From assembly GCA_027486095.1 (NCBI GenBank), contig JAIXPT010000338.1:1-51622 (forward strand): 51,622 nucleotides of DNA, read 5' to 3'. Under the pieces are notes generated by a model. That model was given only the letters and a program-made list of their open reading frames with translations. It made no database searches and had not been told where the DNA came from. The number at the start of each line of letters is the position of its first letter. Positions within the stretch are counted from its first letter, which is position 1. Position numbers and translations under genes: made by a program. Shown one piece after another: positions 27,829-47,294 of this stretch. The stretch comes from Planctomycetaceae bacterium (GTDB lineage Bacteria; Planctomycetota; Planctomycetia; Pirellulales; UBA1268).

Positions 27829-27924
27829 CAATGATCCTCCGTCGTGCCCGGGCTGTCGCCCTCCACGCTGGCGAGATCGCACGTGCGTCCGCTACATTCG
27901 CGTGGTTTCAAGGCCGAGATCATC

Positions 27925-30900: not shown

Positions 30901-31002
30901 GCCCAGGTGGTGCAGAAGGAGCGGGAGCAGCTCGCCGAACTGGAAGCGAAGCTGGCCAAAGGCCGCGAAACCCTCGCGGCGCTCGAGCGCCGTCCGACGT
31001 AG
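27925..31002 (+). CDS. valS: Valyl-tRNA synthetase
   Basis: PPPNVTGALHLGHA (HIGH), TMSKSKGN (KMSKS), editing domain, anticodon-binding domain and C-terminal coiled coil. Start re-called to ATG 27925. It carries an extra CxxC-X17-CxxC insertion (see findings). Confidence 0.95.
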   Translation: MHELPKQYDHTAAQARCRALWDTNRTWHAEPAPAGDPRPVFSIVIPPPNVTGALHLGHALNNTLQDVLVRTRRMQGFRTLWMPGTDHAGIATQAVVERRLLEEEKLSRHDLGREALVARIWAWKEQYEKRILGQLRDLGASCDWDRTRFTLDDQCAAAVREAFFRLFHKGLVRRGKRLVNWDTFLQTAVSDDEVFHEEVKGHFWHIRYDVIDPNPGEPVSVTVATTRPETLLGDTAVAVHPAPAAALDAAERALREKRALANAKEHAEIDRALDDLTQRRTDLLPLLDTLAAMARAGRQVRLPLLGRAIPLVADEWAKPEMGSGCVKITPAHDPNDYDVGRRQSLPMLNILNPDGTLNAEAGPYAGLTIPKARTKVVGDLEAGGQLVQVEDRVIELAHSDRSKTPIEPYLADQWFIRMDEIAQPALDAVAGGAVRIFPERYVKSYLDWLGEKRDWPVSRQLWWGHRIPIWHVEGVAEADLATAFAGRDGVAWASDGGAGWHVCSRDESLGVDGIAGHKLVRDPDVLDTWFSSALWPHSTLGWPAATPELASFYPTSTLVTSRDIITLWVARMVIMGLFDTGRIPFRDVAIHPKILDRYGETMSKSKGNGVDPVDVIEALGADALRFGMTSMATETQDVRMPVEFQCPHCEARIEQTTQNRMLPRIACPKCKQAFRTQWAAKPEDLALPRGPALSERFEAGRNFSNKLWNATRFVLMNLEGFAAGGLAPDTAAAEAIPLEDRWLMSRLASVTRDATRAIDEYRFAEAARILYAFTWDDFCSAYLELCKARLADPATRPQAQAMLLLGLDTILRLLHPIMPFVTEEIWQHLRTIAGNRRTPWDASALPESIMVAAWPAPPAAWVDGRTETQFGMFLTVVGAIREIRSRQNVPPRTSVKVALRMPADTTALLAPMLGSLASMAVAEITAAGPEATGSPGAATATAGGCDVFVDLADLIDVTAEIARITKENEKTAGFIKAKHAKLADEKFTAKAPAQVVQKEREQLAELEAKLAKGRETLAALERRPT

Positions 31003-31082
31003 GGACAGGGCTCCAGTCCTGTCCGGTGTAGGGACAGGGCTCCAGTCCTGTCCGACGTAGGGACAGGGCTCCAGTCCTGTCC
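30996..31082 (+). repeat. Three tandem 29-nt REP-like units, each GTAG + hairpin GGACAGG-gctccagt-CCTGTCC
   Basis: Units are at 30996-31024, 31025-31053 and 31054-31082. They are identical apart from the first 3 nt. The valS TAG stop (31000-31002) lies inside the GTAG of unit 1. Confidence 0.9.
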
Positions 31083-31085
31083 ACC

Positions 31086-31107
31086 CGACAGGCCTGGAGG
31101 CCTGTCG
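31086..31107. repeat. Variant hairpin of the same family (CGACAGG-cctggagg-CCTGTCG)
   Basis: Immediately follows the tandem array. It has the same stem sequence and a different loop. Confidence 0.8.
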
Positions 31108-31150
31108 CTCCAGCCACATGAAACGCTCGCCGTTTTGAGATACCATCACG

Positions 31151-31191
31151 GAAGGGCGGGTGCCGGCGGCCAAGAGCGCGGCACGCCCTTC
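31151..31191. other. Strong GC-rich hairpin (13 bp with a 2-nt bulge, 13-nt loop) upstream of the BFN nuclease gene
   Basis: gaagggcgGGtgccg - gcggccaagagcg - cggcacgcccttc. Confidence 0.5.
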
Positions 31192-31226
31192 CCTCGCCCA
31201 CCAGCCCCGCACGTCGGAGTCGAATC

Positions 31227-31628
31227 ATGACCGTCCAGATGGAGCTCTCGCGGATCATCATCAGCGAGATCAACGATCAGCAGGTCGTGTATCTCAAAGA
31301 GGTCGAGGGCGACCGCACGTTTCCGATCCTGATCGGCCTCTTCGAGGCCACGAGCATCGATCGCCGTGTGAAGCACCACCAATCGCCCCGGCCGCTGACA
31401 CACGACCTCCTCGTGGCCAGCGTCGAACTGCTCGGCGGAGAGTTTCAAGACGTCGTGATCAGCGAACTCAAGGAACACACCTACTTCGCCACGATCCGCG
31501 TCGTGAAAGATGGCGAGGTCGTGGAGATCGACGCCCGCCCGTCCGACGCGATCGCAGTGGCCGTGACCTGCGAGCCGAACCTTCCGATCTACGTGGCGGA
31601 AGAAGTGCTCGAGAGCGTGCTCGGGTAG
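31227..31628 (+). CDS. Bifunctional nuclease (BFN/DUF151) family protein
   Basis: FPILIG..EA..I........RPLTHDL........G....V.I..L...TY.A.I.......EIDARPSDAIA.A is the family pattern. Confidence 0.85.
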   Translation: MTVQMELSRIIISEINDQQVVYLKEVEGDRTFPILIGLFEATSIDRRVKHHQSPRPLTHDLLVASVELLGGEFQDVVISELKEHTYFATIRVVKDGEVVEIDARPSDAIAVAVTCEPNLPIYVAEEVLESVLG

Positions 31629-31920
31629 CGACAGGCTCCAGGCTGCCCCGCGTAGCGACAGGCCCGGAGGGCCGGGTAAATTCCAGCCGACAGCGTCGGC
31701 CAAGCGAAAATCGGCACGACGCCGATGTTTCGCGTACAGACAGAGCTGGAGCTCCGTCGCTACATCCAAACATCCGATACGCCTGGAGCTCCGTCGCTAC
31801 GTTCCGCACCAGGCCCGGAGGGCCGGGTTGATTCGAGCCGACGGAGTCGGCCAAGCGAAAATCGGCACGACGCCGATGTTTCGCGTACACACAGAGCTGG
31901 TGCTCCGTCGCTCCATCCGG
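31625..31920. repeat. BIME-like mosaic: GTAGCGACAGG-type REP units in both orientations plus two copies of a ~109-nt unit (31659-31767, 31810-31918)
   Basis: Plus-strand units begin with GTAG at 31625 (containing the TAG stop of the BFN gene) and at 31652. Degenerate inverted units end at 31763, 31800 and ~31912. The 109-nt units are near-identical and contain hairpins gccgac-N3-gtcggc and atcggc-acgac-gccgat. Confidence 0.85.
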
Positions 31921-31924
31921 CAAG

Positions 31925-32287
<363 letters not shown>

Positions 32288-34048
32288 CTACAGTCCAAAC
32301 GCCTTCCGCAGCACGCGCAGCGACTTCTCGCCATGCTCTGCGGCTACGACCACATTCAGCCGCACCTCGCTCGTGCTCACGAGGTCGATGTTGATGCCTT
32401 CGTCGGCGAGCGGCTTGAAGAGCCTGTCGGCCACGCCCGCGTGGCTGCGGATGCCCACGCCCGTGATCGAGAGCTTGGCCACGTGCGGCACGTCGGCCAC
32501 GGTCGCCCCGCGGGCGGCGGCGATCTTTTTGGCGGCGTCGGTCGCCCGGTCGCGATCGCCGGCCGGCACGGTAAACGAGATCTCGGCCCGGCCGTCGCGG
32601 GGATGGCTCTGCACGATCATGTCCACATTGAGCCCGGCCCGGCCCAGCTCCTCGAACACAGCGGCCGCCACGCCCGGCGTGTCAGGGAGGTCGGTAAACG
32701 TCACGAGCGCCTGCGACGAATCGAGCTGGCAGTCTTCGATCGCGAGGTCTTCCATGCCCCCGAGCCGCTGCACCACCTCGAGCGGGCTCGACTTCACGAG
32801 GTGCGTGCCCGCGACGTCGGCCTCGCCGTCCACCGTCTCCGCTTCGAGGCCGAAGGCCCGGTGCACCGCCTGCACGGCCGCCTGGGCGTCGGATTTGTCC
32901 ACGAGCGCCGAAATCTTGATCTCGCTCGTGGTGATCATGCGCACGTTGATGCCGGCGGCCGAGAGCGCCGAGAACATCCTGCCCGCCACGCCCTCCTCCC
33001 GCTCCATGCCCACGCCCACAACGCTCACCTTCGCGAGCGAGGCATCGTGTGAAACGCCCGTCGCCCGCAGGTCGTTCGCGACCGCCGCGGAGAGTTCGAG
33101 CGCCTCGGCGAGGTCGTCGGCAGGCACCGTGAACGAGATATCGGCCCGCCCCCCCTGCCCGACGTTCTGCACGATCATGTCCACTGCGATGCCGCTGGCG
33201 GCCAGCCGCGAAAAGAGCGCGTGGCTCGACCCCGGCTGGTCGGGAACATTTTCGAGCGTGATCCGCGCCTCGTCCTTGGCGAGGGCCACGCCGCTCGCCG
33301 GCCGGGGCGTCGATTCCTCGGCCGAAAGGATCACGGTGCCTGGCATGTCCTTGAAGCTCGACCGCACGAGCACCTTCACGCCGAATTTCTTGGCGAACTC
33401 GATCGACCGCGAGTGCATCACGCCGGCCCCGAGGCTCGCCAATTCGAGCATCTCGTCGTAGCTGATCGAGCCCAGCCGCCGGGCCTCCGGGAGCATGCGC
33501 GGGTCGGTGGTGTAGACGCCATCGACGTCGGTGTAGATCTCGCAGAGGTCGGCATCGAGCACGGCGGCCAGCGCCACCGCCGTGGTGTCGGAGCCGCCGC
33601 GGCCGAGGGTCGTGATGTTGCCGTTTTGATCGATCCCCTGGAAGCCGGCAGCGATCACGATCGCCCCGTCGGCGAGCAGGCTTTTGACATGCTCGGTGGA
33701 GATCGACTTGATGCGGGCCTTGGTGTGCGTGGAGTCGGTGCGGATGCCGATCTGGGCCCCCGTGAGGCTCACCGCCTTGTGGCCGAGCGCCTGGATCGCC
33801 ATCGCAAAGAGGGCCACGCTCACCTGCTCGCCGGTGGAGAGGAGCATGTCCATCTCGCGGGCGCTCGGCCGATCGGTGATCGCCTTGGCGAGATCGACGA
33901 GGATGTCGGTCTGGTGGCCCATCGCGCTCACCACGACGACCACCTGCTTGCCCTCCTCGTGCCGCGCGATCGCTTTCTTGGCCGCCGCCACGATCTTCTG
34001 CGGATCAGCCACGCTCGTCCCGCCAAACTTTTGCACCACCAGCGCCAT
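32288..34048 (-). CDS. lysC: Aspartate kinase, long form with duplicated ACT-domain pairs (586 aa)
   Basis: MALVVQKFGGTSVA, VVVVSAMG.QTD, GGSDTTAVALAA. Two successive ACT pairs follow (AKVSVVGVGM..., AKLSITGVGI...). The ATG shares 1 nt with the upstream stop (TGATG). Confidence 0.92.
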   Translation of the reverse strand: MALVVQKFGGTSVADPQKIVAAAKKAIARHEEGKQVVVVVSAMGHQTDILVDLAKAITDRPSAREMDMLLSTGEQVSVALFAMAIQALGHKAVSLTGAQIGIRTDSTHTKARIKSISTEHVKSLLADGAIVIAAGFQGIDQNGNITTLGRGGSDTTAVALAAVLDADLCEIYTDVDGVYTTDPRMLPEARRLGSISYDEMLELASLGAGVMHSRSIEFAKKFGVKVLVRSSFKDMPGTVILSAEESTPRPASGVALAKDEARITLENVPDQPGSSHALFSRLAASGIAVDMIVQNVGQGGRADISFTVPADDLAEALELSAAVANDLRATGVSHDASLAKVSVVGVGMEREEGVAGRMFSALSAAGINVRMITTSEIKISALVDKSDAQAAVQAVHRAFGLEAETVDGEADVAGTHLVKSSPLEVVQRLGGMEDLAIEDCQLDSSQALVTFTDLPDTPGVAAAVFEELGRAGLNVDMIVQSHPRDGRAEISFTVPAGDRDRATDAAKKIAAARGATVADVPHVAKLSITGVGIRSHAGVADRLFKPLADEGINIDLVSTSEVRLNVVVAAEHGEKSLRVLRKAFGL

Positions 34049-35292
34049 CAGAGCGTCCCTTCTTTGCCGAGAAACGTGCCCATCAATCTCCAGCCCGGCT
34101 CGATCACCGTCCCGCTCGCCGCCGCAGCCGCCTCGTCGTAGGTGTGTTGCCCGCCGGCGGCGATGTCGCTGCCGGCGATTACGAAGGGCACCCGGCCGCG
34201 CGAATGCGTCTTCGTGGCGATAAAGGTGGGATGGTCGGGGCAGACGAGAATCCGGTGGGGGCCGAGCGACGCGAGATGCGCGGCGATCGGGCCCACGATC
34301 TTGGCGTCGATCTCCTCGATCGCTTTGACTTTTTCGACGGCATTGCCCTGATGGCTCGCCTCGTCGGGGGCCTCGACATGCACGCACACGAGGTCGGTGT
34401 GCGCAAGCTCGTCGATCGCCGCCCGACCCTTGGCTGCGTAGTCGGTGTCGAGGTAGCCGGTGGCCCCGGGCACCTCGCGCCGCTTCCAGCCTGCGAGGGC
34501 CGCGAGGCCGCGCAGCAGATCGACGGCCGTGATCATCGTGCCGCTCATGCCATACTTTTGGGCAAAGGGCTCGAAGGCCGGGGCCTTGCCCACCCCCCAC
34601 AGCCAGACATGCGTGGCCGGCCGCTTCCCAGCGGCCATCCGCGCCTTGTTTACCGGATGGTCAGCCAGCCAGGCGGCGCTGTTGCTCATGATGTCGGCCA
34701 AGAGCCGGCTGCCGAACCCACGGGGAAAGGCATCGGCAACGGGCTTGTCCATGAGATCGTGTGGGGGCGTGGCCTTGAGATCGCCGGCAAGCGGCGCCGG
34801 GCCGTCGCCCTGCCCGCGATGAATGAGCAGGTTGCGATAGCTGACGCCGGGCTTGAATTCCCAGCTCGCGATGTCGGGAAAGTCTGCAGCAAGGCCGCGC
34901 TGGCAGGCCGCGAGCAGCTGCGTTGCCTCGTCGGTTGAAACATGACCGGCCGTGAAGTCCTCCATGATGGGCCCGGATTCGCCCGGGGCGATCGTCACGA
35001 GGTTGCAACGCACGGCCCAGTCGTGGGGCCCGAGCACGATGCCCTGCGCGGCGGCCTCCAGCGGCGCGCGACCCGTGAAGAATGCAAGAGGGTCGTAGCC
35101 CACGAGGCTCATGCACGCCACCTCGGAGCCGGGCGGCAGGCTCTCCGGCACGTGGTTTGTCAGCCCGACGCGACCCCGCGCGGCCAGGGCGTCCATCGCA
35201 GGCGTGCGGGCGGCCTGAAACGGCGTCTTGCCGCCGAGCGAATCCTGCGGGGCGTCGGCCGCGCCGTCTGGGATCACGATCACGTATTTCAT
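34048..35292 (-). CDS. Cofactor-independent phosphoglycerate mutase (ApgM) family protein; by context the 'proposed homoserine kinase' subgroup
   Basis: MKYVIVIPDGAAD...GKTP...A.TP.MD.LA..G, HVEAPDEASHQGN and CPDHPT are metalloenzyme motifs. The gene sits between hom and lysC. Confidence 0.85.
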   Translation of the reverse strand: MKYVIVIPDGAADAPQDSLGGKTPFQAARTPAMDALAARGRVGLTNHVPESLPPGSEVACMSLVGYDPLAFFTGRAPLEAAAQGIVLGPHDWAVRCNLVTIAPGESGPIMEDFTAGHVSTDEATQLLAACQRGLAADFPDIASWEFKPGVSYRNLLIHRGQGDGPAPLAGDLKATPPHDLMDKPVADAFPRGFGSRLLADIMSNSAAWLADHPVNKARMAAGKRPATHVWLWGVGKAPAFEPFAQKYGMSGTMITAVDLLRGLAALAGWKRREVPGATGYLDTDYAAKGRAAIDELAHTDLVCVHVEAPDEASHQGNAVEKVKAIEEIDAKIVGPIAAHLASLGPHRILVCPDHPTFIATKTHSRGRVPFVIAGSDIAAGGQHTYDEAAAAASGTVIEPGWRLMGTFLGKEGTL

Positions 35293-35311
35293 CGGTGCGC
35301 CGCGGCTCAGG

Positions 35312-36613
35312 TTACTCGTCGAGGACGCTCAGGCAGACGCTCCGCCCGCTGACGACGTCGCTCGCGTCGATGTGGTCAAGCGCCTTGCGTACCGATGTGG
35401 TGCCGCAGGGGTGGGTCATGATCACGAGCGGCACCGTAGCATCGCCCGCCTGGCCGGCGTCGTGCTGGATGACCGAGGCGATCGAGATCCCGTGTTCACC
35501 GAGGATCCCCGTGATCCGTGCGAGCACGCCCGGCCGATCCTTGACGCGGATCCGCAGGAAGTGCCGCTCGACCATGTCCACGCCGGCGATCCGGGCCGCG
35601 GGCGAATCGGCCGAGAGCACGCCGGTGGTCTTGAAGGTGATCACCGCCCGGCCCACGACCGTGTCGATGATGTCGGCCACGACGGCCGATGCCGTCGGCA
35701 TCTGGCCGGCTCCGAGGCCGTGGAAGAACATCCGCCCGACGGCGTCGCCCACGATGCTCACGGCGTTGTAGGCGCCGCGGGTTTCGGCGAGCGGCGTACC
35801 CTGCTTCACGAGCGCCGGGGCCACCCGCATCGCGAGGCGGCCGTCGCTGCGGCTGGCCACGGCCACGAGCCGAATCCGATAGCCGAGCTCGGCGGCGTAG
35901 TTCAAGAGGCCGAGATCGATCCCTTCGATCCCGGTGCGCGGAATCTCGCCCCACGGCACCCACACGCCAAACGCCAGGTGGGCCAGGATCGCGAGCTTCT
36001 GCGTGGCATCGGTGCCATCGACGTCCATCGCCGGGTCGGCCTCGGCGAAGCCTTTTTGTTGCGCGAGCTTGAGCGCGGCAGCGTAGTCGGCGCCGTCTTC
36101 CTCCATCCGCGTGAGGATGAAGTTGCTCGTGCCGTTCAAGATGCCGCGGATGCTCTCGATGCGGTTCGCGGCCAGGCACTCGCCGATGGCCGCCACGATC
36201 GGGATCCCGCCCGCCACGGCCGCTTCGAAGGCGATCGAGCGACCCTTCCGCCGGGCCAGTTCGAAGAGCTCGGGGCCGTGCTCGGCAAGAAGCGCCTTGT
36301 TGGCCGTGACCACGTCCTTGCCGTGCTCCAAGAGGTCGATCATGATCGTCCGCGCGGGCTCGAGGCCGCCCACAAGCAGAGCCGCCACCGAGATCGACGG
36401 ATCGCGGGAGACGTCGCGATAGTCGGCCGAGAGGTTTCCGCCCGGCACGTCCACCGCCCGCGTTTTGGCGACGTCCTTCACGACCGCCTTGGCGACCACG
36501 ATCGGCCGGCCGGCATGCCGCTCGATGTGGTCGGCCGACTCCACGAGCAGGCGCACCACGCCCGACCCGACGGTTCCCATGCCGACCACGCCGACTCGCA
36601 CTGGCTCGCTCAT
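35312..36613 (-). CDS. hom: Homoserine dehydrogenase
   Basis: VGVVGMGTVGSGVV Rossmann motif, NGTSNFIL, LGYAE-like FAEADP, C-terminal ACT domain. Start re-called to ATG 36613 with a GAGGAG SD. Confidence 0.92.
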   Translation of the reverse strand: MSEPVRVGVVGMGTVGSGVVRLLVESADHIERHAGRPIVVAKAVVKDVAKTRAVDVPGGNLSADYRDVSRDPSISVAALLVGGLEPARTIMIDLLEHGKDVVTANKALLAEHGPELFELARRKGRSIAFEAAVAGGIPIVAAIGECLAANRIESIRGILNGTSNFILTRMEEDGADYAAALKLAQQKGFAEADPAMDVDGTDATQKLAILAHLAFGVWVPWGEIPRTGIEGIDLGLLNYAAELGYRIRLVAVASRSDGRLAMRVAPALVKQGTPLAETRGAYNAVSIVGDAVGRMFFHGLGAGQMPTASAVVADIIDTVVGRAVITFKTTGVLSADSPAARIAGVDMVERHFLRIRVKDRPGVLARITGILGEHGISIASVIQHDAGQAGDATVPLVIMTHPCGTTSVRKALDHIDASDVVSGRSVCLSVLDE

Positions 36614-36771
36614 CCGCCGCTCCTCGCGGCTCGCCTGGACATCAGGCCCGCGCCGCTGGCCCCGATCGTAATGAGGCCGCGCCTCGCCCGAAAGCACGGG
36701 CGGCAATCACCGCCGCGGGGCGCATGCCGGTCGTGCCGGTCGTGCGGCCCGCGGCAGACGGCCTGGTCCGC

Positions 36772-37179
36772 TCACTTCCGGCCGGCGGCATCGAGTGCCG
36801 CTTGCATCGCCGCGACGAAGCGTCGGGCGGTCTCGAGCGTGTTCACGACCTGCTCCCGCGGAATATCCACAAAATCGCCGTAATCGGCGTCGAGCCGCTG
36901 CGCGTACAGCCCGTCAAACGCCACGGCCTGCTCCGGAGCGAGGAACCCCTCGGGAACGAGCTCTTCGTGGACCGCCTTGATGATCCCGCGATGCTTCGTG
37001 AACCTGCGGTCCCGAGCAATGAACACCGCCGTTGCCGCGTGAAAGCAGGCGTAATAGGCGCGGTTCCACGCGAGGCGGGCGCTGCCACGGAGGGCCGCCG
37101 CCTCGGCGTCATCGAGGCACTCTCGCGCCAGCCGCATCTGCTGTGCGACAATCCTCTCGCGGGCCTCTTGCTCGGTCAT
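36772..37179 (-). CDS. HEPN-domain toxin of an MNT-HEPN (type VII TA) pair
   Basis: All-helical 135 aa with an R-X6-H element (HRGIIKAVH). The ATG overlaps the MNT stop as ATGA. Confidence 0.75.
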   Translation of the reverse strand: MTEQEARERIVAQQMRLARECLDDAEAAALRGSARLAWNRAYYACFHAATAVFIARDRRFTKHRGIIKAVHEELVPEGFLAPEQAVAFDGLYAQRLDADYGDFVDIPREQVVNTLETARRFVAAMQAALDAAGRK

Positions 37180-37547
37180 CCAATCCCCTCGGCTGCCTGA
37201 AAGACGCCGATTCCCTCGGCATCGATTTCCTTGCGGATCGGGGCTGCCTGATAGATTCCGCGCCACCACTCGTCACTCGTGCGAATGGAGAGCTCGGGCC
37301 ACGTGCCCCGCCGCAGTCCGATCTGCCTCACCGTCGCCCGCATCGTCCCGATCTCCTCCGGAGTGAGTTGCCGGTGGGTGAGCACGAGGAGATCGATATC
37401 TGAATCGGGCGTGTCGTCGCCGCGGGCCTTCGATCCGAACAAGACGACCGAGTCAACCGGCCAGCCCGCCGACAGAGCCGCCGCAACGTCTTCGATCGTC
37501 TGCCGATCGGCGTCCGTCAGCAAAGCAAGCGATGGCAACGTCGCCAT
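37176..37547 (-). CDS. Minimal nucleotidyltransferase (MNT) antitoxin of an MNT-HEPN pair
   Basis: VVLFGSKARGDDTPDSDIDLLV is the GSxxRGx(5)SDxDL motif. Confidence 0.8.
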   Translation of the reverse strand: MATLPSLALLTDADRQTIEDVAAALSAGWPVDSVVLFGSKARGDDTPDSDIDLLVLTHRQLTPEEIGTMRATVRQIGLRRGTWPELSIRTSDEWWRGIYQAAPIRKEIDAEGIGVFQAAEGIG

Positions 37548-37659
37548 GGTTGGGGGCTCCGGGAGAACTGAGCTTGCATTCTACCCACAACGCCCGTCCA
37601 TCGCCGCCGGCTTGGTAGACTCCGGGTGCCCCAACACTCTGCAGAAAAGGCAGCCACCG

Positions 37660-38880
37660 ATGATGCTTCGTGCGCTGGCATACGTCTTGTTTTTCGCAGT
37701 GTGCCTCGGTGGCATGCCGGCCATGGCGGCGGAGCGGGAACGCGTGATCCTTTGGCCCAGCGGCGCGCCGCTCGCCAAGGGCACGGCTGCAACCGACGAG
37801 CCCTTCGTCGAGGTCTATCCCGCCGCACACGATGCCGCAGCCGGGCCCGCGTTCGTGATCTGCCCCGGGGGCGGCTACGGCGCACTGGCAGCTGACCACG
37901 AGGGCACGCAGATCGCCCGCTGGGCAAATGGGCTCGGGGCGACGGCCTTCGTGCTTCACTATCGGCTCGGCAGCAAAGGCTACCACTACCCCGCGCAGCT
38001 CCTCGACGTGCAGCGGGCGCTGCGATGGGTGCGGGCGAATGCCGCGAGGTATTCGATCGATCCACAACGCGTCGGCATCATCGGCTTCTCGGCGGGCGGG
38101 CATCTCGCCTCGATGGCCGCCACGCTCTTCGACGAGCGGCCGGAGGGCACCACGCACGACGCGATCGATGCCGTGAGCGCGCGGCCTGATATCGCGGTGC
38201 TCGGCTATCCCGTGATTTCGATGACCGCGGCTCACGCCCACAAGGGCTCCCGCAAAAACCTGCTCGGCCCCGCCGCTGACGACGATGCCGCCGCCCGCCC
38301 ACTCGACACCGACACCCGCGTGACGGCGAACACGCCGCCCACGTTTCTCTTTCAGACCGATGAAGACGCCGGCGTGCCGGCCGAAAACGTGATCAGCTTC
38401 TACCTCGCCTGCCGGCGAAACCACGTGCCCGCCGAACTGCATGTCTTCGAACGCGGCCCCCACGGTGTCGGCTTCGGCCTCGGCGATCCCGTGCTCTCGA
38501 CGTGGCCTGATCGCCTCGCCGGCTGGCTCCGCGACCGCGGGTTTCTCGCAGTCGCCAGCCGCGTGCCCGTGCAGGGCACGGTCACGATCAACGGCACCCC
38601 CGTGAGCTGGGGCATGATCTCGTTTGCCCCGGAGAATCCGCGGGCGCCGGTCGCGACCGCCCGGATCCGCAACGGCGCCTTCAAGCTCGACGAAAAGCTC
38701 GGGCCGGTCGCGGGGCCCGTGCGCGTGACGATCACCTCCTCCTCCGCCGATACGCCCGGCGTCGAAGGCACGAACGGCGTCGTCACGACGACGAAGGCCC
38801 GGCCCGATGCGGAGCCGTGGCGGCTCGACTTCTCGGGCCCCGGCATCCCCGAGCCGCTCGTGATCGAGATCACGCGTTGA
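37660..38880 (+). CDS. Secreted alpha/beta-hydrolase (esterase/lipase, AES-like) with C-terminal beta-sandwich domain
   Basis: Signal peptide. PGGGYG oxyanion region, nucleophile elbow GFSAGGH, and a late DED..VP...H catalytic region. Start re-called to ATG 37660. Confidence 0.8.
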   Translation: MMLRALAYVLFFAVCLGGMPAMAAERERVILWPSGAPLAKGTAATDEPFVEVYPAAHDAAAGPAFVICPGGGYGALAADHEGTQIARWANGLGATAFVLHYRLGSKGYHYPAQLLDVQRALRWVRANAARYSIDPQRVGIIGFSAGGHLASMAATLFDERPEGTTHDAIDAVSARPDIAVLGYPVISMTAAHAHKGSRKNLLGPAADDDAAARPLDTDTRVTANTPPTFLFQTDEDAGVPAENVISFYLACRRNHVPAELHVFERGPHGVGFGLGDPVLSTWPDRLAGWLRDRGFLAVASRVPVQGTVTINGTPVSWGMISFAPENPRAPVATARIRNGAFKLDEKLGPVAGPVRVTITSSSADTPGVEGTNGVVTTTKARPDAEPWRLDFSGPGIPEPLVIEITR

Positions 38881-38907
38881 TGCCCGGCGTGTGACAAGGC
38901 ACCGCGG

Positions 38908-39037
38908 CGTCCCTTCGGCTCACGCCTCGGGCTTCCGTTAAAAATCCCCGCGGAAGGCCCAGCCCCGGCGAATCACACGCACGCCCGACGCGTGAGCGCC
39001 CACCCCCAGGAGGCCCGAGGCGTGAGCCGAAGGGACG
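38908..39037. repeat. MITE-like 130-nt element bounded by 29-nt inverted repeats (family B)
   Basis: cgtcccttcggctcacgcctcgggcttcc (38908-38936) against the reverse complement of ggaggcccgaggcgtgagccgaagggacg (39009-39037). There is 1 mismatch and a 72-nt spacer. Confidence 0.7.
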
Positions 39038-39047
39038 CCGTTTCAAA

Positions 39048-39232: not shown

Positions 39233-39312
39233 CGGCTCTTCGCCGCGGGCGTGTATAACGCTGGCCTGCCGCGCCTGTCGCCGCGGCCGTTTCGCCCCCT
39301 CGGAGCACAGCC

Positions 39313-40374
39313 GTGGAGTCAGCCGCCCGTGAGTTTTTGATCCGCCTGCTCGAGACGCCGAGCCCATCGGGCTACGAACAGCCGATCCAGAAGGTCGTGC
39401 GCGACTATCTCGCGGGCGTGGCCGACACGGTCTCCACCGATGCCCACGGCAACGTGATCGGCGTGAAGAACGCCGGTGCTCCCACGCGCATGCTGCTCGC
39501 CGGCCACTGCGACCAGATCGGCCTGATCGTGCAATACATCGATTCCGACGGCTACATCTCGGTGCAACCGATCGGCGGCTGGGATCCGATGCAGCTCGTC
39601 GGCTCGCGCATGGTCATCTGGACAGCCACGGGCCCCGTGCCCGGCGTGATCGCCCGCAAGCCGATCCATCTGCTCACGGAGGAGGAGCGGAAGGTCGTTC
39701 CCAAGATGAAAGACCTCTGGATCGACATCGGCGCGCCCGACAAGGCCGACGCCGAGAGCGTGGTGCGCGTCGGCGATTGCGTGACGTTCGAGCTCAAATT
39801 CCAGCCGCTCCGCCACAACCGCGCCTGCTCCGTGGCGATGGACGACAAGATCGGGCTGTGGGTGGTGCTCGAAGCCTTTCGCCGGGCGAGCGCGGCCGGC
39901 CCCCTGCCCTGCGCACTCCATGTGGCCTCGACCGTGCAGGAGGAGATCGGCCTCCGCGGGGCCCAGACGAGCTCCTATGCCGTCGATCCGCACGTGGCGA
40001 TCGCCGTGGATGTCACGCACGCCACCGACTGCCCCACGATCGACAAGAAGTCGGAGGGCGACATCGGCCTCGGCGAGGGGCCGGTCGTCTACCGTGGGCC
40101 CAACATGAACCCGCACGTGGTCAGCCGGCTCCTCGCCGCCGGCAAAGCCAAGGACATTCCGATCCAGCTGGCCGCCAGCGGCCGGGCCACGCCCACGGAT
40201 GCCAACGTCTTGCAGACCACGCGGGCCGGCGTGGCGACGGGCCTCGTGAGCGTGCCCAACCGCTACATGCACTCGGCCGTCGAGACGATCTCGCTCGACG
40301 ATGCCGACCGGGCCGCCGACCTGCTCGCCGCCTTCTGCCGCGGCCTCGAAGGCCCAATCGACTGGGCCCCGTGA
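39313..40374 (+). CDS. M42-family metallo-aminopeptidase (FrvX/endoglucanase-annotated family)
   Basis: LLETPSPSGYE, TDAHGNVIG, AGHCDQIG, DDKIG and VQEEIGLRGA motifs. GTG start. Confidence 0.88.
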   Translation: MESAAREFLIRLLETPSPSGYEQPIQKVVRDYLAGVADTVSTDAHGNVIGVKNAGAPTRMLLAGHCDQIGLIVQYIDSDGYISVQPIGGWDPMQLVGSRMVIWTATGPVPGVIARKPIHLLTEEERKVVPKMKDLWIDIGAPDKADAESVVRVGDCVTFELKFQPLRHNRACSVAMDDKIGLWVVLEAFRRASAAGPLPCALHVASTVQEEIGLRGAQTSSYAVDPHVAIAVDVTHATDCPTIDKKSEGDIGLGEGPVVYRGPNMNPHVVSRLLAAGKAKDIPIQLAASGRATPTDANVLQTTRAGVATGLVSVPNRYMHSAVETISLDDADRAADLLAAFCRGLEGPIDWAP

Positions 40375-40405
40375 GGCAAACCCCACCGAGGCCACAGAGC
40401 CGCCG

Positions 40406-40633
40406 CTACACCGCTGACTCGATCGGCTCGAGGGTCGTGATGTGCGGGTGTGCCACGATTCGGGCCAGGCTGGGCACCCCGTGGCGATCCGGCGACGCGA
40501 TCACCGTCTCGGTGCGTGCGGGAAACGCCATCTCCGGATGCCGCACCTCATAGCCCTCGCCGCTGGAAGTCACGACACGAAAGGGCTGGAACGGTCGCAC
40601 ATCGAGCCGGCTCTTGATCGCTTCGTAGGTCAT
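40406..40633 (-). CDS. Small hypothetical protein (75 aa)
   Basis: ATG 40633 with GGAG upstream. The pattern RPFQPFRVVTSSGEGYEVRHPEMAF resembles small conserved hypotheticals recurrent in PVC and cyanobacterial genomes. No function is known. Confidence 0.4.
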   Translation of the reverse strand: MTYEAIKSRLDVRPFQPFRVVTSSGEGYEVRHPEMAFPARTETVIASPDRHGVPSLARIVAHPHITTLEPIESAV

Positions 40634-40775
40634 GGCTGCTGCTCCGAGTTCCAGGGTCACCCACGCAACCAAGCAGGTGTACGCGTAGGCAGGATCATGG
40701 GCGGCCCGAAGCGTGTCAAGGCAACGCGGGCCTGCACAAGCGTCGGTGGGCAGAAGCCGGGGACACCTCGCCAAC

Positions 40776-40926
40776 AAGCCCCGGGCGGGAGCCCGGGGAC
40801 TCCGCGCCGAGGCGGAGCCCCGGCTCCATGCGGCATGGATAACGGCATTGCCCGCTCACCCGGTGTCCCGTCGCTCCCGCTCCGGGCTTGTTGGCACACG
40901 GAAGCCCGAGGCGCGAGCCGAAGGGA
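40776..40926 (+). repeat. Composite repeat E2 + family B unit (direct copy of 39048..39232 without the internal duplication)
   Basis: Same order of hairpins with identical stems and different loops (ggga; gccgag). Then gtcccgtcgctcccgctccgggcttgttgg and ggaagcccgaggcgcgagccgaaggga. Confidence 0.85.
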
Positions 40927-41019
40927 ATCCGCGCCGCGATTCGCAACCGGCCATCCGCCCGGCTTGCGCAGCGAGCCGGCCAAGCCGGGCCGGCGGTGGT
41001 CGCGTGAGCTCCTCGCATT

Positions 41020-41045
41020 CGACAGGGCTGGAGCCCTGTCGCTAC
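41020..41045 (-). repeat. REP-like unit GTAG+CGACAGG-gctccagc-CCTGTCG abutting the helicase gene
   Basis: The minus strand reads GTAGCGACAGGGCTCCAGCCCTGTCG. Its TAG is the stop codon (41044-41042) of the DEAD-box helicase gene. Confidence 0.85.
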
Positions 41046-42457
41046 AGGGCGCGGCGGTGTTTGCTGCGCTTCGGACGCGCGGGCGCAGCTGGGGCCGGCG
41101 AGGCGGCCGGTGCGGGCGCGGACGACGCGCTGTCGTGAGCCGTGCTGCGCCGTTCTGAGCGCGATGACCGCTCCCGCCGCCCTGCGGCGCCTTGCCGCCC
41201 TGCTCCACCTTGCCGTTCGTGCCGGCGCGGTGCGTCCGACCGGCCTCCGCGGGAACGCCGCCGGCCGCCGTATGCCGCCTGGGGTTCCGCGGAGGCCGAG
41301 ACGCCTTCGGGCGCGTTCTCGGCCGGAATGCGCATCCGGATCAGCCGCTCGATCGCAGCCAGCCGCGGCCGCTCTTCGTGGTCGCAGAAGCTCACGGCCG
41401 TGCCCGACTGCCCGGCCCGGCCCGTGCGGCCGATGCGGTGCACGTAGGTTTCGGGCTCGTGCGGCAGTTCGTAGTTCACGACGTGCGACACGGCATCCAC
41501 ATCGATGCCACGGGCCGCGATGTCGGTCGCGATGAGCACTGGCGGTCGCGGCGACTTGAACGCCGCGAGGGCCCGCTCGCGCTGATTCTGCGACTTGTTG
41601 CCGTGGATCGCGGCTGCGGAAATCCCCGCCTTGTCGAGGTCGCGGTGCAGCTTGTCGGCACCGTGCTTCGTGCGGGTGAACACGATCACCCGCGACATCG
41701 GCTCCTCGCGCAAGAGCTGCACGAGCCGCTGCTTCTTCTCCTGCTTGGCCACGTGATACACCGACTGCGCGACCGTCTCGGCCGACGTGGCCTGCGGGGC
41801 CGTCTTCACCTCGAGCGGATCACAGAGCATCGAATCGGCAAGTTCGCGAACCTCGGCCGGCAGCGTGGCGGAGAAGAACAGCGTCTGGCGATCGCGCGGC
41901 AAGAGGCCCACGATCCGGCGCACGTCGTGGATGAAGCCCATGTCGAGCATCCTGTCGGCCTCGTCGAGGACGAGGAACTCGACGGACCGGAGATCAACGA
42001 GCCGCTGGCCCACGAGATCGAGGAGCCGGCCGGGAGTGGCCACGAGCACGTCCACGCCGCGGGCCACGGCATCGGCCTGGGGCCGCTGGCTCACGCCGCC
42101 GTAGATCACGGCCGCGGTGGTGCCGGCATGGCGGCCGTAGGCCCGCACGCTTTCGTGGATCTGCGCGGCGAGCTCCCGCGTGGGGGCGAGCACGAGCACG
42201 CGGCAGCGCCGGGAAGCCGCACGGCCAGGCGCGGCGAGCAATCGCTCAATGATCGGCAGCGTGAATGCGGCCGTCTTCCCGGTGCCCGTCTGGGCGCAGC
42301 CGAAGAGGTCGCGGCCAGCGAGCACGTGGGGGATGGCCTTGGCCTGGATCGGGGTGGGCGTGGAGTAGCCCTCGTCGGCGAGCGCGCGGAGCGTGACGGC
42401 CGAGAGGCCCAGATCGGCAAATGTGGGGCTGGAAAGCGAAGCGGAGATGGAGTTCAA
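41042..42457 (-). CDS. DEAD-box ATP-dependent RNA helicase (RhlE-like) with Arg-rich C-terminal tail
   Basis: Q-motif (GYSTPTPIQ), [18 protein letters not shown] ([11 protein letters not shown]), [13 protein letters not shown]. Apparent TTG start. Confidence 0.92.
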
Positions 42458-42821
42458 GACAGTTCTTTCTAGGCGAACAAACAGAAAACAAGCCCGGAAA
42501 ACAGGGGCGGAGCCACGTTGGCCAAGCGATCCCGGCGATGGATCACGGCCTGCCGAACCGTCGCCTGGGCCGGGAGTCGGCTGGAAGCCAACTCACACCG
42601 GAAGACAACCGCTGCGAGAGATGCGATCGCGGCAGACACAGATCGGCGCTTGGCCGAAACACTGCCATCATCGTTTCCGAACAGTCGAATCATACCACGC
42701 CGGCGGCAGTGACGCAACGCGGCGGCGATTCCAGCAATCGCGCGGCCGGCGGGCCCCATCTTTGCCCCTCGCCGCCCCTTCTCTCGTTTACCTGCTTAGG
42801 ACAAACCCCGGAGACTCGCCC

Positions 42822-43349
42822 ATGCCTCGTGGAGCCCCTCGTTCATTTCCCCTGTTGACGATTGTCAGTTGCATGATCCTCGCCGCAGCGGCGACCACTC
42901 CTCTGCGCCCGTCGGCGGCGGCTGAGAGCGCTCCGTCTGTTGCACCGCGCGAGCTTGTCAAAGCCGTCAATCAGCTTGCATCCACCGACATCCCGCTGGC
43001 TCCGGCCCAGGGCATGCCGTGCACGCTCGACAAGCTGCCGGGGTCGCTCACCAAAATCCTGCCCCTGCTGCCGCCTGACCACCGCACCTTGATCCACGAC
43101 TGTGCGCACGGCCGCCTGCGGCTCGAGCGTGCGGTGGAGGCCTTCGATCTCGTGGCGATGATCGAAGACCCCGCCGACCGGCCCGCGGCCGTGGCCAAGA
43201 TCCGCGCATTTTTCGACGGCCGGGCGGTGGATGTCGTGGTGGGGCGGGGCCTCTCTGATGAACCCTATCCGCTCAGCTTCGACTGGGCCGTGGTGCTCGA
43301 CTCCCGCTCAGGCCGGCTGTTCAGCTTCGTGCTCAACTGCCACGACTGA
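42822..43349 (+). CDS. Hypothetical secreted protein
   Basis: ATG 42822 with GGAG upstream and a signal-peptide-like N-terminus. No recognisable domain. Confidence 0.45.
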   Translation: MPRGAPRSFPLLTIVSCMILAAAATTPLRPSAAAESAPSVAPRELVKAVNQLASTDIPLAPAQGMPCTLDKLPGSLTKILPLLPPDHRTLIHDCAHGRLRLERAVEAFDLVAMIEDPADRPAAVAKIRAFFDGRAVDVVVGRGLSDEPYPLSFDWAVVLDSRSGRLFSFVLNCHD

Positions 43350-43526
43350 TGTTCTGCCAAAACGGCACACTCCGCAGCAGGCGGTTGTTTTGCGACGGCG
43401 TCCACCGCCGGTTTTCGACGCAAAGGGCCTGGGAGCCGACACTTTGGCACGCGGGTTGCTTCCCGACCGTCAGAGCCGTTCAATGGCTGCCAAACCTGTC
43501 CGCTTCGCTTTCCGAAGGAGTCAATC

Positions 43527-45233
43527 GTGGCCAAGCAAATGGTGTTCGACGATGAGGCCCGTCAGCCGCTGCTCGCCGGCGTTTCGAAGCTCGCCCGCGC
43601 GGTGAAAAGCACGCTCGGCCCCCGCGGCCGCAACGCCGTGCTCGACAAGGGCTGGGGCTCGCCGAAGGTTACCAAAGACGGCGTCACCGTCGCCGAAGAC
43701 ATCGACCTCGAAGACCCCTACGAAAACCTGGGGGCCCAGCTCGTCAAGGAAGCGGCCAGCAAGACCAACGACGTGGCCGGCGACGGCACGACCACGGCCA
43801 CCGTGCTCGCCGAAGCGATCTTCCGGGAAGGGCTCAAGATGATCGCGGCGGGGGCCGATCCGATGGCTCTCTCCCGCGGCATCCACAAGGCTGTGGAGGC
43901 GGTCTCGAAGGCCGTGCTCTCGATGGCCACGCCGATCAACGAGAAAAACAAAAAGGAGCTGATGCAGATCGCGACGATCGCCGGGAACAACGACCCCACG
44001 ATCGGCAACGTGCTCTCCGAAGCGATCCTCAAGGTGGGCAAAGACGGCGTGATCACCGTCGAAGAGGGCAAGCAGGCCGAAACGACGGTAGACGTGGTCG
44101 AAGGCATGCAGTTCGACCGCGGCTTCCTCTCGCCGCACTTCGTGACCGACACCGACGCCCAGACCTGTGAATTTGAAAACCCCTACATCCTCTTGTTTGA
44201 AGAGAAGGTTTCCAGCGCGAAAAACCTCGTGCCGCTGCTCGAAGCGATCAGCAAGTCCGGCAAGCCGCTCGTGTTGATCGCCGAAGACGTGGAGGGCGAG
44301 GCCCTGGCCACGCTCGTGGTCAATAAATTGCGCGGCATCGTGCAGAGCGTGGCCGTGAAGGCTCCGGGCTATGGCGACCGCCGCAAGGCGATCCTCGGCG
44401 ATCTCGCGGTGCTCACCGGCGGCCAGGCGATCTTCAAGGATCTCGGCATCGCGCTGGATTCCGTCAAGCTCTCCGACCTCGGCCGGGCCAAGAAGGTGAT
44501 CGTGGAGGCGGAGAACACCACGATCGTGAGTGGCGGGGGTACCAAGGCGGCCATCGACGGCCGCGCCGCCCAGATCCGCGACGAGATCTCCAAGACCACG
44601 AGCGACTACGATCGCGAAAAGCTCCAGGAACGCCTCGCCAAACTGGCCGGCGGCGTGGCCCAGATCAGCGTGGGCGCGGCCACCGAAACGGAGATGAAGG
44701 AGCGCAAGGCCCTCATCGAAGACGCCAAGAGCGCGACGCAGGCGGCCCTCGCCGAAGGCATCGTGCCCGGCGGCGGCGTCGCCCTCTTGCGCAGCGAAAA
44801 AGCCGTCGAGAAACTCGATCTCGAAGGGGATGAAAAGATGGGGGCGTCGATCGTCAAGAACGCCCTCCGCTACCCTCTCGAAGCGATCGCGGCGAATGCC
44901 GGCGTGGATGGCCCGGTAGTGGTGAATCGCGTCCGCCACATGAAGGGCAAGAACGACGGTTACGACGCCGACAAGGAAGAGTATTGCGACCTCGTCAGTG
45001 CCGGCGTGATCGATCCCGCCAAAGTGGTGCGCACGGCGCTGCAAAACGCCGCCAGCGTGGCGGCGCTCTTGCTCACGACAGAGTCGCTGATCACGGAAAT
45101 CCCCAAGGCCGAAGAAGAAGCCGGCGGCGAGGGCCACGACCACCACGGCATGGGCGGTGGCATGGGTGGCATGGGTGGCATGGGTGGCATGGGTGGCGGC
45201 ATGGGCGGCATGGGCATGCCCGGCATGATGTAA
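43527..45233 (+). CDS. groEL: Chaperonin GroEL, copy 1 (GGM-repeat C-terminal tail)
   Basis: Canonical GroEL sequence throughout ([12 protein letters not shown] etc.). The tail is [28 protein letters not shown] start with GAAGGAG SD. Confidence 0.95.
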
Positions 45234-45288
45234 GGAAGAGCGACCCCGACATTTGCAACGTTTCCTTCCCTTTTGGAGAGAGTTTCTG

Positions 45289-45594
45289 ATGGCTGCGAAG
45301 AACCTGAAAATTCGTCCGCTCGACGACCGCGTGGTGGTGGAGCCCGTGGAAGCCGAAGAGCGCACCGCCGGCGGCATCGTGCTGCCCGACTCGGCCAAAG
45401 AGAAGCCGCAGCGCGGCCACGTGGTGGCGCTCGGCCCGGGCAAGCTGCTCGAAAACGGCCAGCGTGCCAGCCTCTCGGTGTCGGTGGGCGACGAAGTGAT
45501 CTACGGCAAGTATTCCGGCAGCGACATCGAGGTCGATGGCCACGACGTCAAGATCCTGCGCGAGAGCGACATCCTGGCGAAGGTCCTGAGCTGA
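45289..45594 (+). CDS. groES: Co-chaperonin GroES
   Basis: [47 protein letters not shown]. Confidence 0.95.
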
Positions 45595-45646
45595 TTTTTT
45601 TCGTGTCCCCGGCGACCGTCACACCATTTTTCGAGGAGACCGTTTC

Positions 45647-47266
45647 GTGCCCAAGCAACTGATGTTCGACGACAACGCCCGTGCCAAGCTGCTCAAGGGC
45701 GTGGAGAAGCTCGCCGGAGCCGTCGCCGTGACGATGGGCCCGACCGGCCGCAACGTCATCATCGACAAGTCGTTCGGCGGCCCGACGGTGACGAAAGACG
45801 GCGTGACGGTGAGCAAGGAAGTGGACCTCGAAGACGCCTTCGAGAACATGGGCGCGAAGCTCGTGAACGAAGTGGCCTCGAAGACCTCGGATCTCGCCGG
45901 CGACGGCACGACCACGGCGACGGTGCTGGCCCGAGCGATCTTCCGCGAGGGCACCCGGATGGTGGCCGCGGGCAGCAACCCCACGGCGGTGCGCCGCGGC
46001 ATCGAGAAGGGCGTGGCGGCGGCCGTGGGCCATTTGATGGAGATTGCCAAGAAAGTCGATCGCCCGGAAGAGATCGCCCAGGTCGGCTCGATCAGCGCCA
46101 ACAACGACCGCGCGATCGGCGACCTGCTCGCCGAGGCGCTGCAAAAGGTGGGCAAAGACGGCGTGATCACCGTCGAAGAGGGGAAGACGACCGAGACGAC
46201 CGTGCGATTCGTAGACGGCATGCAGTTTGACAAGGGCTACATCTCGCCCTACTTCATCAATCGCACCGCCGAAATGGACTGCCAGCTCGACGACGCCCTG
46301 ATCCTGATCCACGAAAAGAAGATCTCGAATCTGCGCGATCTGCTGCCCTTGCTCGAGAAGGTGGCCCAGTCGGGCAAGCCCTTCCTGATCATCGCCGAAG
46401 ACATCGACGGCGACGCGCTCACCGCGCTCGTGGTCAACAAGCTCCGCGGAGTTCTCAATATCTGCGCGGCGAAGGCTCCCGGCTTCGGCGACCGCCGCAA
46501 GGCGATGCTCGGCGACATTGCCGTGCTCACCGGCGGCACGCTGATCAGCGAGGATCTCGGGCTCAAGCTCGAGAACCTCGATCTTTCGCACCTGGGCAAG
46601 GCCAAGAGCATCACCGTGGACAAGAGTGAGACCACGATCGTGCAGGGTGCCGGCAAGCAGGCCGACGTGCAGGCCCGCGTGCAGCAGATCCGCAACCAGA
46701 TCGAGGGCACCGAGAGCGAGTACGACCGCGAGAAGCTTCAGGAGCGGCTCGCGAAGCTCACCGGCGGCGTGGCGATCGTGTCGGTCGGTGCCGGCACCGA
46801 GGCCGAGATGAAGCAGAAGAAGGCCCGCGTCGAAGACGCCCTGCATGCGACCCGTGCGGCCGTCGAAGAGGGCATCGTGCCCGGCGGCGGCGTGGCCCTG
46901 CTCCGCTGCCGCGAGGCGGTGGAGAAGGCTCGCTCGCAGGCCAAGGGCGACGAGAAGATCGGCGTGGATATCGTGCTGCACGCCCTCGAGGCGCCGATCC
47001 GGCAGATCGCCGAGAATGGCGGCATCGATGGCTCGGTCGTGGCCGACGAAGTCGCGGGCAAAGACGTGCACATCGGCTACGACGCCAACAAGGGCGAATA
47101 CGTGGACATGCTCAAGGCCGGAATCATCGACCCGGTGAAGGTGGTGCGCGTGGCCCTCACGAACGCCGCCAGCATCTCCGGGCTGCTGCTCACGACCGAA
47201 GCCCTGGTCACGAACCTCGACAAAGACGACTCGAAGAAGCGTCGCGCGGAAGGCAGCATCCGCTAG
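45647..47266 (+). CDS. groEL: Chaperonin GroEL, copy 2 (no GGM tail; basic tail [10 protein letters not shown])
   Basis: Canonical GroEL sequence. GTG start with GAGGAGA SD, 52 nt after groES. Confidence 0.95.
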
Positions 47267-47276
47267 CGTGTTGGAG

Positions 47277-47294
47277 GACAGGCTCGAGCCTGTC
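47277..47294. terminator. Same-family hairpin GACAGGCTC/GAGCCTGTC 10 nt after the groEL2 stop (terminator-like, no U tract)
   Basis: An 18-nt perfect palindrome between groEL2 and dnaJ. Confidence 0.4.

Follow-up and report, generated by a model that had tools for sequence, protein, structure and literature searches.

A 51,622-nt stretch of planctomycete DNA (contig C370, hereafter the window) from the Pirellulales-type metagenome-assembled genome (MAG) G000 carries short hairpins preceded by the tetranucleotide GTAG, several of which lie directly at the 3′ ends of genes, where the TAG of the hairpin head is itself the stop codon. We found that these repeats are GTAG-headed repetitive extragenic palindromic (REP) elements, including REPIN-like doublets, that occur in hundreds of copies in this genome (3.77 Mb, 456 contigs, 67.5% GC, 77% complete). 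Genome-wide, the head TAG is the exact stop of the upstream gene on the same strand in 121 of 487 copies, where <1 would be expected. Comparison with congeners suggests that the stop position is ancestral and that the element probably brought its own TAG to it.

Three genes in the window end in this way. The valyl-tRNA synthetase gene valS is terminated by the first REP head of a tandem array, which provides its stop codon (TAG 31000-31002), and REP heads likewise supply the TAG stops of a BFN-domain nuclease gene and, on the minus strand, of a DEAD-box helicase gene. An earlier note on this DNA, made from the sequence alone, had proposed just this for the three genes, and both the sequence and the Pfam identities agree with it. 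The pattern GTAGSGACAGG-N6-10-CCTGTC matched the window exactly four times (30999, 31028 and 31057 on the plus strand; 41021-41045 on the minus strand), compared with 0 matches in 100 shuffles.

To place these copies in the genome, REPs were called with a stem-agnostic definition, namely GTAG, 0-1 nt, and then a hairpin opening with GAC[AG]G[AG]. This yielded 487 copies in 323 clusters in G000, which holds 319 exact GACAGG..CCTGTC hairpins. Two families were distinguished. Family A (GTAGCGACAGGCCTCCAGGCCTGTC with an inverted partner arm; in full cGTAGC-GACAGGCC-TCCA-GGCCTGTC-GAAt...) has 138 exact copies and is mostly paired with the inverted arm GACAGAGCTGGAGCTCCGTCGCTAC, forming a ~67-nt doublet with a DNA fold of −24.8 kcal/mol. 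Family B (GTAGGACAGGCTTCAGCCTGTC; cGTAG-GACAGGC-TTCA-GCCTGTC) has 117 exact copies. An initial narrow pattern was dropped because it overlooked family B in other genomes as well as the second arm of family A, and a definition accepting GTAG plus any hairpin carried a background of ~3.4% for other tetranucleotides. Single REPs fold with −6.9 to −10.8 kcal/mol as DNA (z-scores −4.4 to −6.3). Across aligned copies, each base of the GTAG is conserved at 94-100% in family A and at 86-96% in family B, in line with the conserved head that the earlier note had assumed.

Two copies are present in 107 of the 323 clusters and three or four in another 25, arranged as inverted, REPIN-like doublets and as arrays. 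Among the 208 clusters that could be placed between genes, 117 lie in convergent, 81 in tandem and 10 in divergent spacers; all spacers of G000 comprise 402 convergent (17%), 1609 tandem and 319 divergent ones. The repeats also break the assembly, with 57 clusters lying ≤150 nt from a contig end. The copy number, the conserved GTAG, the inverted doublets and arrays and the enrichment in convergent spacers together bear out the proposed REP-like family with its GTAG-plus-hairpin geometry. Copy numbers in congeners range from 0 to 246 for family A and from 3 to 295 for family B. The exact family-B 22-mer also appears in many MAGs labeled Pirellulales or Planctomycetia and in Acidobacteriota, Verrucomicrobiia and Ca. 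Kuenenia; some of these cross-phylum matches, which are on small contigs, may be binning errors, while the acidobacterial ones sit on megabase contigs. Downstream sequence logos revealed no T-run 3′ of either family (T reaches ≤51% at any one position, and such positions are not consecutive), so that neither has the hallmark of an intrinsic terminator. A search of Rfam 15 gave nothing at the gathering score, with chance matches to miRNA hairpins at 20-28 bits against gathering scores of 80-168. A second abundant repeat (consensus GCGCCGGCTCGGGGTTACCCCGTACCGTCTCGCCGGACGTTCGCC; ~76-104 copies in G000, none inside the window) often stands just 3′ of a family-B REP at gene ends and is kept at orthologous sites in congeners.

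Gene ends in G000 were taken from a home-made codon-usage caller, which returned 2784 genes at 79% coding density, with TGA as the stop in 1810, TAG in 725 (26%) and TAA in 249. Relative to these ends, the enrichment of REP heads at stop codons predicted by the earlier note is massive: beside the 121 heads at offset 0, no other offset between −90 and +300 holds >9 heads, and the gene stop lies downstream of the head in only 3 cases. For family B, 60 of 122 copies (49%) give a stop. REP heads thereby account for 16.7% of TAG stops and end 4.3% of called genes, shares that would rise if decayed heads were added. A loose pattern for decayed heads produced 6.5% false positives at TGA stops and was kept for qualitative use only. 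The coincidence does not hinge on the caller, as in a caller-independent frame control 115 heads end open frames of ≥100 codons with coding-type GC content at third codon positions (GC3), versus 2 and 5 in the shifted frames. At least one stop is given by 113 of the 323 clusters, and both stops of a convergent pair by eight. At C72:10802-10827, for example, a perfect 26-nt palindrome (GTAGGACAGGCTGAAGCCTGTCCTAC) is the whole spacer between two genes and supplies both stops. The hairpin begins 1-2 nt after the stop at REP-TAG genes, among which are valS, lysS, pheT, gyrA, ligA, gltA, leuA and der. More generally in G000, a G stands before the stop in 61-67% of genes ending in TAG or TAA (TAG 67%) versus 28% of those ending in TGA, and the TAG part of this bias owes partly to REP heads.

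We then compared orthologous gene ends for valS, the BFN gene, the helicase gene and 20 conserved housekeeping genes with REP-TAG stops, including ligA, lysS, pepA, gltA, gyrA, leuA, pheT and der. The orthologue stops at the identical alignment position in 69 of 107 cases (64%) and within ±1 codon in 94 of 107 (88%). The BFN protein ends in ...VLG at the same codon in 11 of 11 species and the helicase in ...RRAL in 12 of 12, and each of the 20 tested REP-TAG genes has conserved orthologues with the same end point. Since the stop position is kept in most orthologues, the proteins were neither shortened nor lengthened in any systematic way, and the suggestion that the elements had truncated or replaced gene ends is not supported in its truncation form.

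TAG accounts for 69% of these ends in the five closer congeners: 28 stops carry an intact REP, 4 carry a decayed one, and 24 are bare GTAGs. At two heads the sequence has become GTAA, with the hairpin still following, and these still act as stops. Of the orthologues of REP-TAG genes, 71% end in TAG; as a calibration, TGA was retained in 22 of 24 comparisons when TGA-ending genes of G000 were set against the closer congeners. In G008, the most divergent congener, TGA is the stop at 12 of the 17 such ends, an excess that fits a TAG brought by the REP, although G008 is the sole outgroup-like genome and does not fix the direction of change. Families A and B were found at the same gene end in different species for valS, the helicase, C198, pepP, ntrC and leuA, which indicates that arrival at gene ends is recurrent. 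At the valS and BFN ends of G003, G004 and G005 there is another REP family with a GTGG head (GTGGGGCAAGCGTCCCGCTTGCC); in G005 such an element begins directly after the TAA stop of BFN.

Several loci preserve what may be successive states of this process. Among congeners, the helicase gene has no REP and a native TGA, TAA or TAG stop; or a native TAA abutted by a complete GTAGGACAGGCTTCAGCCTGTC (G012, G014); or a REP whose TAG is the stop (in G010 as 'TAG GACAGGCTTCAGCCTGGC', in G000 and G011 with family A, and in G013 in decayed form). Between the second and third states, where the context is otherwise the same, the difference is 4 nt spanning a GTA microhomology. Takeover once the native stop had been lost is seen at two more loci. 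In G000 the M16 peptidase gene has gained 4 codons relative to four congeners, which have a native stop with the REP 6-9 nt later. In the C339 gene, G004 reads 'TAG cgcggccccatGTAGGAC' and G005 'ATG TAG GAC', a 12-nt deletion in G005 having removed the native stop. Nested cases, with the 5′ remnant of one REP at the stop and an entire new REP behind it (such as GTAGCGACcGGCCT|GTAGCGACAGGCC...), and tandem arrays carry a separate GTAG on each copy. At the G013 helicase and G000 BFN ends, the hairpin is decayed and the TAG intact. G precedes GTAG in 2% of REP heads versus 24% of free GTAG stops, and 22% of REP-TAG genes, versus 5% of others, have Thr (ACG) as their last residue; this extended 5′ consensus and Thr excess suggest that bases 5′ of the TAG were also brought by the element. 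The extra C-terminal Thr of ValS matches the ACG that precedes the heads in the tandem array.

In other bacteria, repeats of this type flank genes for REP-associated tyrosine transposases (RAYTs), and the earlier note had proposed a RAYT-driven family. Using an acidobacterial RAYT as the query, we found RAYT-REP loci (REPtrons) in the genus. Family B flanks RAYT genes in G010:C81, G013:C115, G002:C3, G007:C239 and G006:C418, family A flanks one in G011:C85, and the RAYT gene of G008 has on its flanks the family-B hairpin in a GTGG-headed form. In Acidobacteriota, RAYT genes at four loci (L295, L296, L305 and L310, in assemblies with megabase contigs) are flanked by the exact family-B 22-mer, and the nearest relatives of these RAYTs are accompanied by REPs with co-varying stems. 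The identical 22-nt GTAGGACAGGCTTCAGCCTGTC thus flanks RAYTs that are only ~39% identical (L305, L310, L295 and L296 versus L312, the G010:C81 locus), which would mean that the RAYT-REP pairing is very deeply conserved or that it crossed between phyla. These associations identify families A and B as RAYT-associated REPs. Searches of G000 with Pfam PF01797, the acidobacterial RAYT and, by tblastn, the genus-specific RAYTs detected none, a weak negative given that completeness is 77%, that contigs below 2.5 kb were cut off and that REPtrons of sister MAGs lie on REP-bounded contigs of 2.7-5.7 kb. The RAYT of G000 was either lost or is on a small REP-bounded contig below the cut-off. The proposal of RAYT-driven elements is thus supported for the family, not for G000 itself; its expectation of a RAYT-like gene in the same genome was not borne out, on the weak evidence just described.

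Several other Y1 genes were considered and rejected as RAYTs. The first PF01797 matches (G011:C223, G004:C9 and G007:C14) are not REP-flanked, are 27-31% identical to the true REP-flanked RAYTs and have NF047646 as their best match at 63-70 bits, below the 80-bit cut-off. A Y1 gene shared in synteny by G011 and G004 falls in another clade and is missing from the corresponding site of the window. At this site (10519-12525, minus strand) the window encodes a 668-aa Gly/Ala/Ser-rich repetitive protein with an Ig-like C terminus where G011 and G004 have the 0.8-kb Y1-family gene between conserved neighbors shared with the window, marking a variable locus. In G000, the only protein with a Y1_Tnp domain (C84:7206-8264, minus strand; 29.5 bits) is atypical, is not bordered by REPs and has no counterpart in the other genomes of the genus. 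It comprises 352 aa with a split Y1_Tnp domain, in which ~130 aa are inserted between the HUH motif NHLHVL and the Tyr motif YIDLNP; a degraded copy is present at C339:14452-15078, and a PDB sequence search with the protein found nothing. Finally, the IS200-like Y1 gene of G004:C106 (L143, G004:C106:2500-7500) lies between copies of a repeat other than these REPs, GAAAGCCCGAGGCGTAAGCCGAGTGGATGCC, in a layout of the 'TIRYT' kind, and this repeat also follows some genes in G000, G004 and G005.

How a mobile repeat comes to coincide so exactly with stop codons is only partly resolved. We consider it rather likely that an element-borne TAG takes over at or beside the native stop. The REP hairpin would carry its own 5′ GTAG, the guide tetranucleotide for RAYT-type Y1 (HUH) transposases, and would be spread by cognate RAYTs that are present in sister species and were lost from, or remained unassembled in, G000. 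Copies accumulate directly 3′ of genes, and one landing on or right beside a native stop could replace it with its own TAG, either immediately or later, through a microdeletion or when the native stop was lost. Selection would then keep the head, which is now the stop codon. The REPs abutting TAA, the nested copies and the structure of the E. coli GTAG guide favor an element that brings its own GTAG, and a TAG under selection once it serves as a stop would explain the decayed hairpins with an intact TAG and the GTAA variants. Several observations weigh against this account. An offset of 0 in 64% of comparisons is too precise for random nearby insertion plus deletion, so that some site preference seems to be needed. 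G000 itself has no head at offset +4, where a native stop would be directly abutted by GTAG, and no RAYT was found there to speak for present mobility. The gene calls come from a home-made caller. The relatives, all of other species, are ~75-85% identical in DNA, which leaves the direction of change at single sites uncertain. Lastly, 26 of 107 orthologue ends have a bare GTAG stop without a REP, which is equally expected if GTAG stops were pre-existing targets.

This last possibility, that the hairpin inserts 3′ of a native G-TAG stop in the manner of IS200/IS605 elements, so that the stop came first and only the hairpin was added, is in our judgment unlikely yet the most serious competitor. 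In a genome of 67.5% GC, stop GTAGs would be a large share of the GTAG sites at which insertion is tolerated. They make up 489 of the ~3,450 GTAGs compatible with non-coding positions, or ~14%, a lower bound since unannotated genes inflate the intergenic count, and thus come within 2-3-fold of the observed 25-35%. Pre-existing targets would also account for the bare GTAGs at orthologous empty sites, as for BFN in G001 and G002 and for an amidohydrolase gene in G004 and G005 versus the filled site in G000 and G006, for the high TAG share among orthologues of REP-TAG genes where TGA genes stay TGA, and for the repeated occupation of the same stops by different families. Speaking against them are the complete GTAG-REP after a native TAA in G012 and G014, the separate GTAG on each tandem or nested copy, the extended 5′ head consensus with its depletion of G and excess of Thr, the TGA stops of G008 and the E. 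coli precedent, where the element itself carries GTAG as a guide and is cut at C|T (PMC3479197). The earlier note's option that elements insert at existing TAG stops is accordingly conceivable but not favored.

Other explanations fare worse than a takeover by the element's TAG. Insertion inside the 3′ end of the coding sequence, with an in-frame TAG truncating proteins whose C-terminal tails are dispensable, could explain why some tails differ by 1-4 codons (valS, PepP, M16), yet it is largely refuted and we regard it as very improbable: the stop positions barely move, extensions occur as well as shortenings, the last residues of BFN and the helicase are identical, and out-of-frame insertions should be twice as frequent as in-frame ones, whereas only 3-9 heads lie inside called coding sequence. 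Even less credible is that the hairpins are locally evolved, selected 3′-end structures such as terminators or mRNA stabilizers rather than mobile DNA. Their position at gene 3′ ends, their enrichment between convergent genes and their stable folds would suit such a role, which is contradicted by the sequence-identical copies of both families and by the RAYT linkage, the same 22-mer flanking RAYT genes in several species and in another phylum; the missing downstream T-run and the wildly varying copy numbers among congeners also disagree with it. That chance or the gene caller produced the coincidence, as home-made calls in a high-GC genome rich in spurious long open frames might suggest, is refuted by the GC3 frame control, the absence of shuffle matches, the Pfam confirmation of the window genes and the co-terminal orthologues of all 20 tested genes, leaving practically no room for it.

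The elements of the window are collected in Table 1. The region 30999-31111 comprises three tandem 29-nt units (GTAGGGACAGGGCTCCAGTCCTGTC plus a 4-nt spacer) followed by a fourth, inverted hairpin, with which the whole array folds back on itself as one long hairpin (−40.6 kcal/mol as DNA). For the additional copies listed in the earlier note, some positions need slight correction. The tandem copies exist and start at 31028 and 31057, not at 31025 and 31054, and the copy placed at 31086 is a REP that proved to be inverted with a degenerate GGAG head. At BFN, the stop TAG does lie in a REP head, which is decayed and lacks an intact hairpin; G011 has an analogous layout at this site, with TAG, a remnant and a full REPIN. 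The copies claimed between 31652 and ~31912 do have REP-type ends but belong mainly to two composite elements of the 117-nt type. Near 47277 there is indeed a hairpin, GGAG-headed and located 7 nt past the TAG stop 47264-47266, which it does not supply.

Table 1 REP elements and REP-terminated genes in the window (contig C370 of G000)
Feature	Position	Strand	Basis
valS gene (1031-codon frame; tRNA-synt_1, Anticodon_1, Val_tRNA-synt_C)	27907..31002	+	Gene call, Pfam
REP copy 1, GTAGGGACAGGGCTCCAGTCCTGTC, rare family variant; gives valS its stop	30999..31023	+	Sequence, pattern match
REP copy 2 of tandem array, 29-nt period	31028..31052	+	Sequence, pattern match
REP copy 3 of tandem array	31057..31081	+	Sequence, pattern match
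Inverted family-A REP, degenerate GGAG head (GGAGCGACAGGCCTCCAGGCCTGTC on minus strand)	31087..31111	−	Sequence, fold
BFN-domain nuclease gene; stop TAG 31626-31628 inside decayed REP head	31227..31628	+	Gene call, Pfam
Decayed REP head GTAGCGACAGGCTCCAGGCTGCCCC at BFN stop, without intact hairpin	31625..31650	+	Sequence
117-nt composite element with REP-type ends (GTAGCGAC...GTCGCTAC), ~49 genome copies	31652..31768	+	Sequence, fold
Truncated REP arm (GTAGCGACGGAGCTCCAGGCG on minus strand)	31780..31800	−	Sequence
Composite element copy 2, 93% identical, one end degenerate (GTCGCTCC)	31810..31918	+	Sequence
REP GTAGCGACAGGGCTCCAGCCCTGTC; TAG 41044-41042 ends DEAD-box helicase gene	41021..41045	−	Pattern match, orthologues
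DEAD-box helicase gene, C terminus ...KHRRAL at REP TAG	41042..42421	−	Gene call, Pfam, orthologues
Family-B-like hairpin, GGAG head (GGAGGACAGGCTCGAGCCTGTC)	47273..47294	+	Sequence

REP-supplied TAG stops have already been noted in the literature (PMC3733652), and in G000 they are unusually frequent and well resolved. Our analysis adds their quantification, the ancestral position of the stop, the recurrence across species and families and the visible intermediate states. A selfish or domesticated repeat family supplies the translation stop for ~4% of the genes of a genome, and does so at the same ends time and again in different species. It is conceivable, if doubtful, that such stop-codon capture acts as a retention trap that shapes stop usage genome-wide. 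If so, selection would keep the GTAG after hairpin and RAYT are gone, waves of REPs would leave a lasting excess of G-TAG stops, and congeners with a GTGG-headed REP would keep TGA; the many bare GTAG stops at orthologous REP sites belong in this context. The genus, which holds GTAG- and GTGG-headed versions of one hairpin, offers a natural comparison for the effect of REPs on stop usage. In practical terms, REP-borne stops are to be expected in annotation, and REP-bounded RAYT loci are easily lost from MAGs, so that an 'absent RAYT' in a draft genome calls for caution. Given the geometry of ribosome stalling in E. coli, REP-TAG genes are also natural test cases for the tuning of expression by REPs.

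RAYTs and REPs with GT[A/G]G heads were defined by Nunvar et al. 2010 (PMC2817692), and GTAG-tagged REPs next to 3′ ends have been reported from >80 species, Planctomycetes included (Di Nocera, De Gregorio & Rocco 2013, BMC Genomics 14:522, PMC3733652). That study states that the GTAG termini 'often provide' the TAG stop to flanking open reading frames, with no numbers, orthologue analysis or mechanism. The repeats described here resemble such GTAG-tagged, SMAG-type repeats in being GC-rich hairpins of 20-26 nt with an unpaired 5′ GTAG, in occurring in hundreds of copies as single units, inverted dimers and arrays, mostly within convergent or tandem spacers near 3′ ends, and in the repeat-flanked RAYT genes. 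They may differ in the stem GACAGG, which does not appear in the main text of that report, and the overlap with stops is here quantified for G000 (25% of copies, 49% in family B, 17% of TAG stops) and located at the ancestral stop position.

Similarities also extend to REPIN-RAYT systems (Bertels & Rainey 2011, cited in PMC3733652) and to the REPs and BIMEs of E. coli, as the inverted doublets fold into long hairpins (family A, −24.8 kcal/mol) with GTAG at the 5′ foot; as in REPIN-RAYT systems, every REP family is paired with a RAYT of its own, and from one related RAYT to the next the stems co-vary. Loop and stem sequences set our families apart from the enterobacterial and Pseudomonas ones, as does the lack of a detected RAYT in G000. 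In E. coli, TnpA(REP) binds the GTAG of the REP as a guide sequence and cuts at C|T (Messing et al. 2012, PMC3479197); GTAG-dependent binding and cleavage, known only for that enzyme, may by analogy apply to the RAYTs of families A and B. E. coli REPs located ≤15 nt from a stop are reported to stall terminating ribosomes and reduce translation, as cited in PMC12306157 (ref. 17). The REPs at gene ends in G000 likewise place a stable hairpin within the ribosome footprint of the stop, here 1-2 nt after it, and differ in that the stop codon itself is part of the element. With IS200/IS605 elements (IS608, ISDra2), the system shares Y1 HUH transposases and the recognition of a hairpin plus a tetranucleotide in single-stranded DNA. 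Unlike those elements, the repeats are 22-117 nt long and carry no transposase, and whereas the 5′ target tetranucleotide of IS608 lies outside the element, the evidence presented here favors a GTAG that travels with the repeat.

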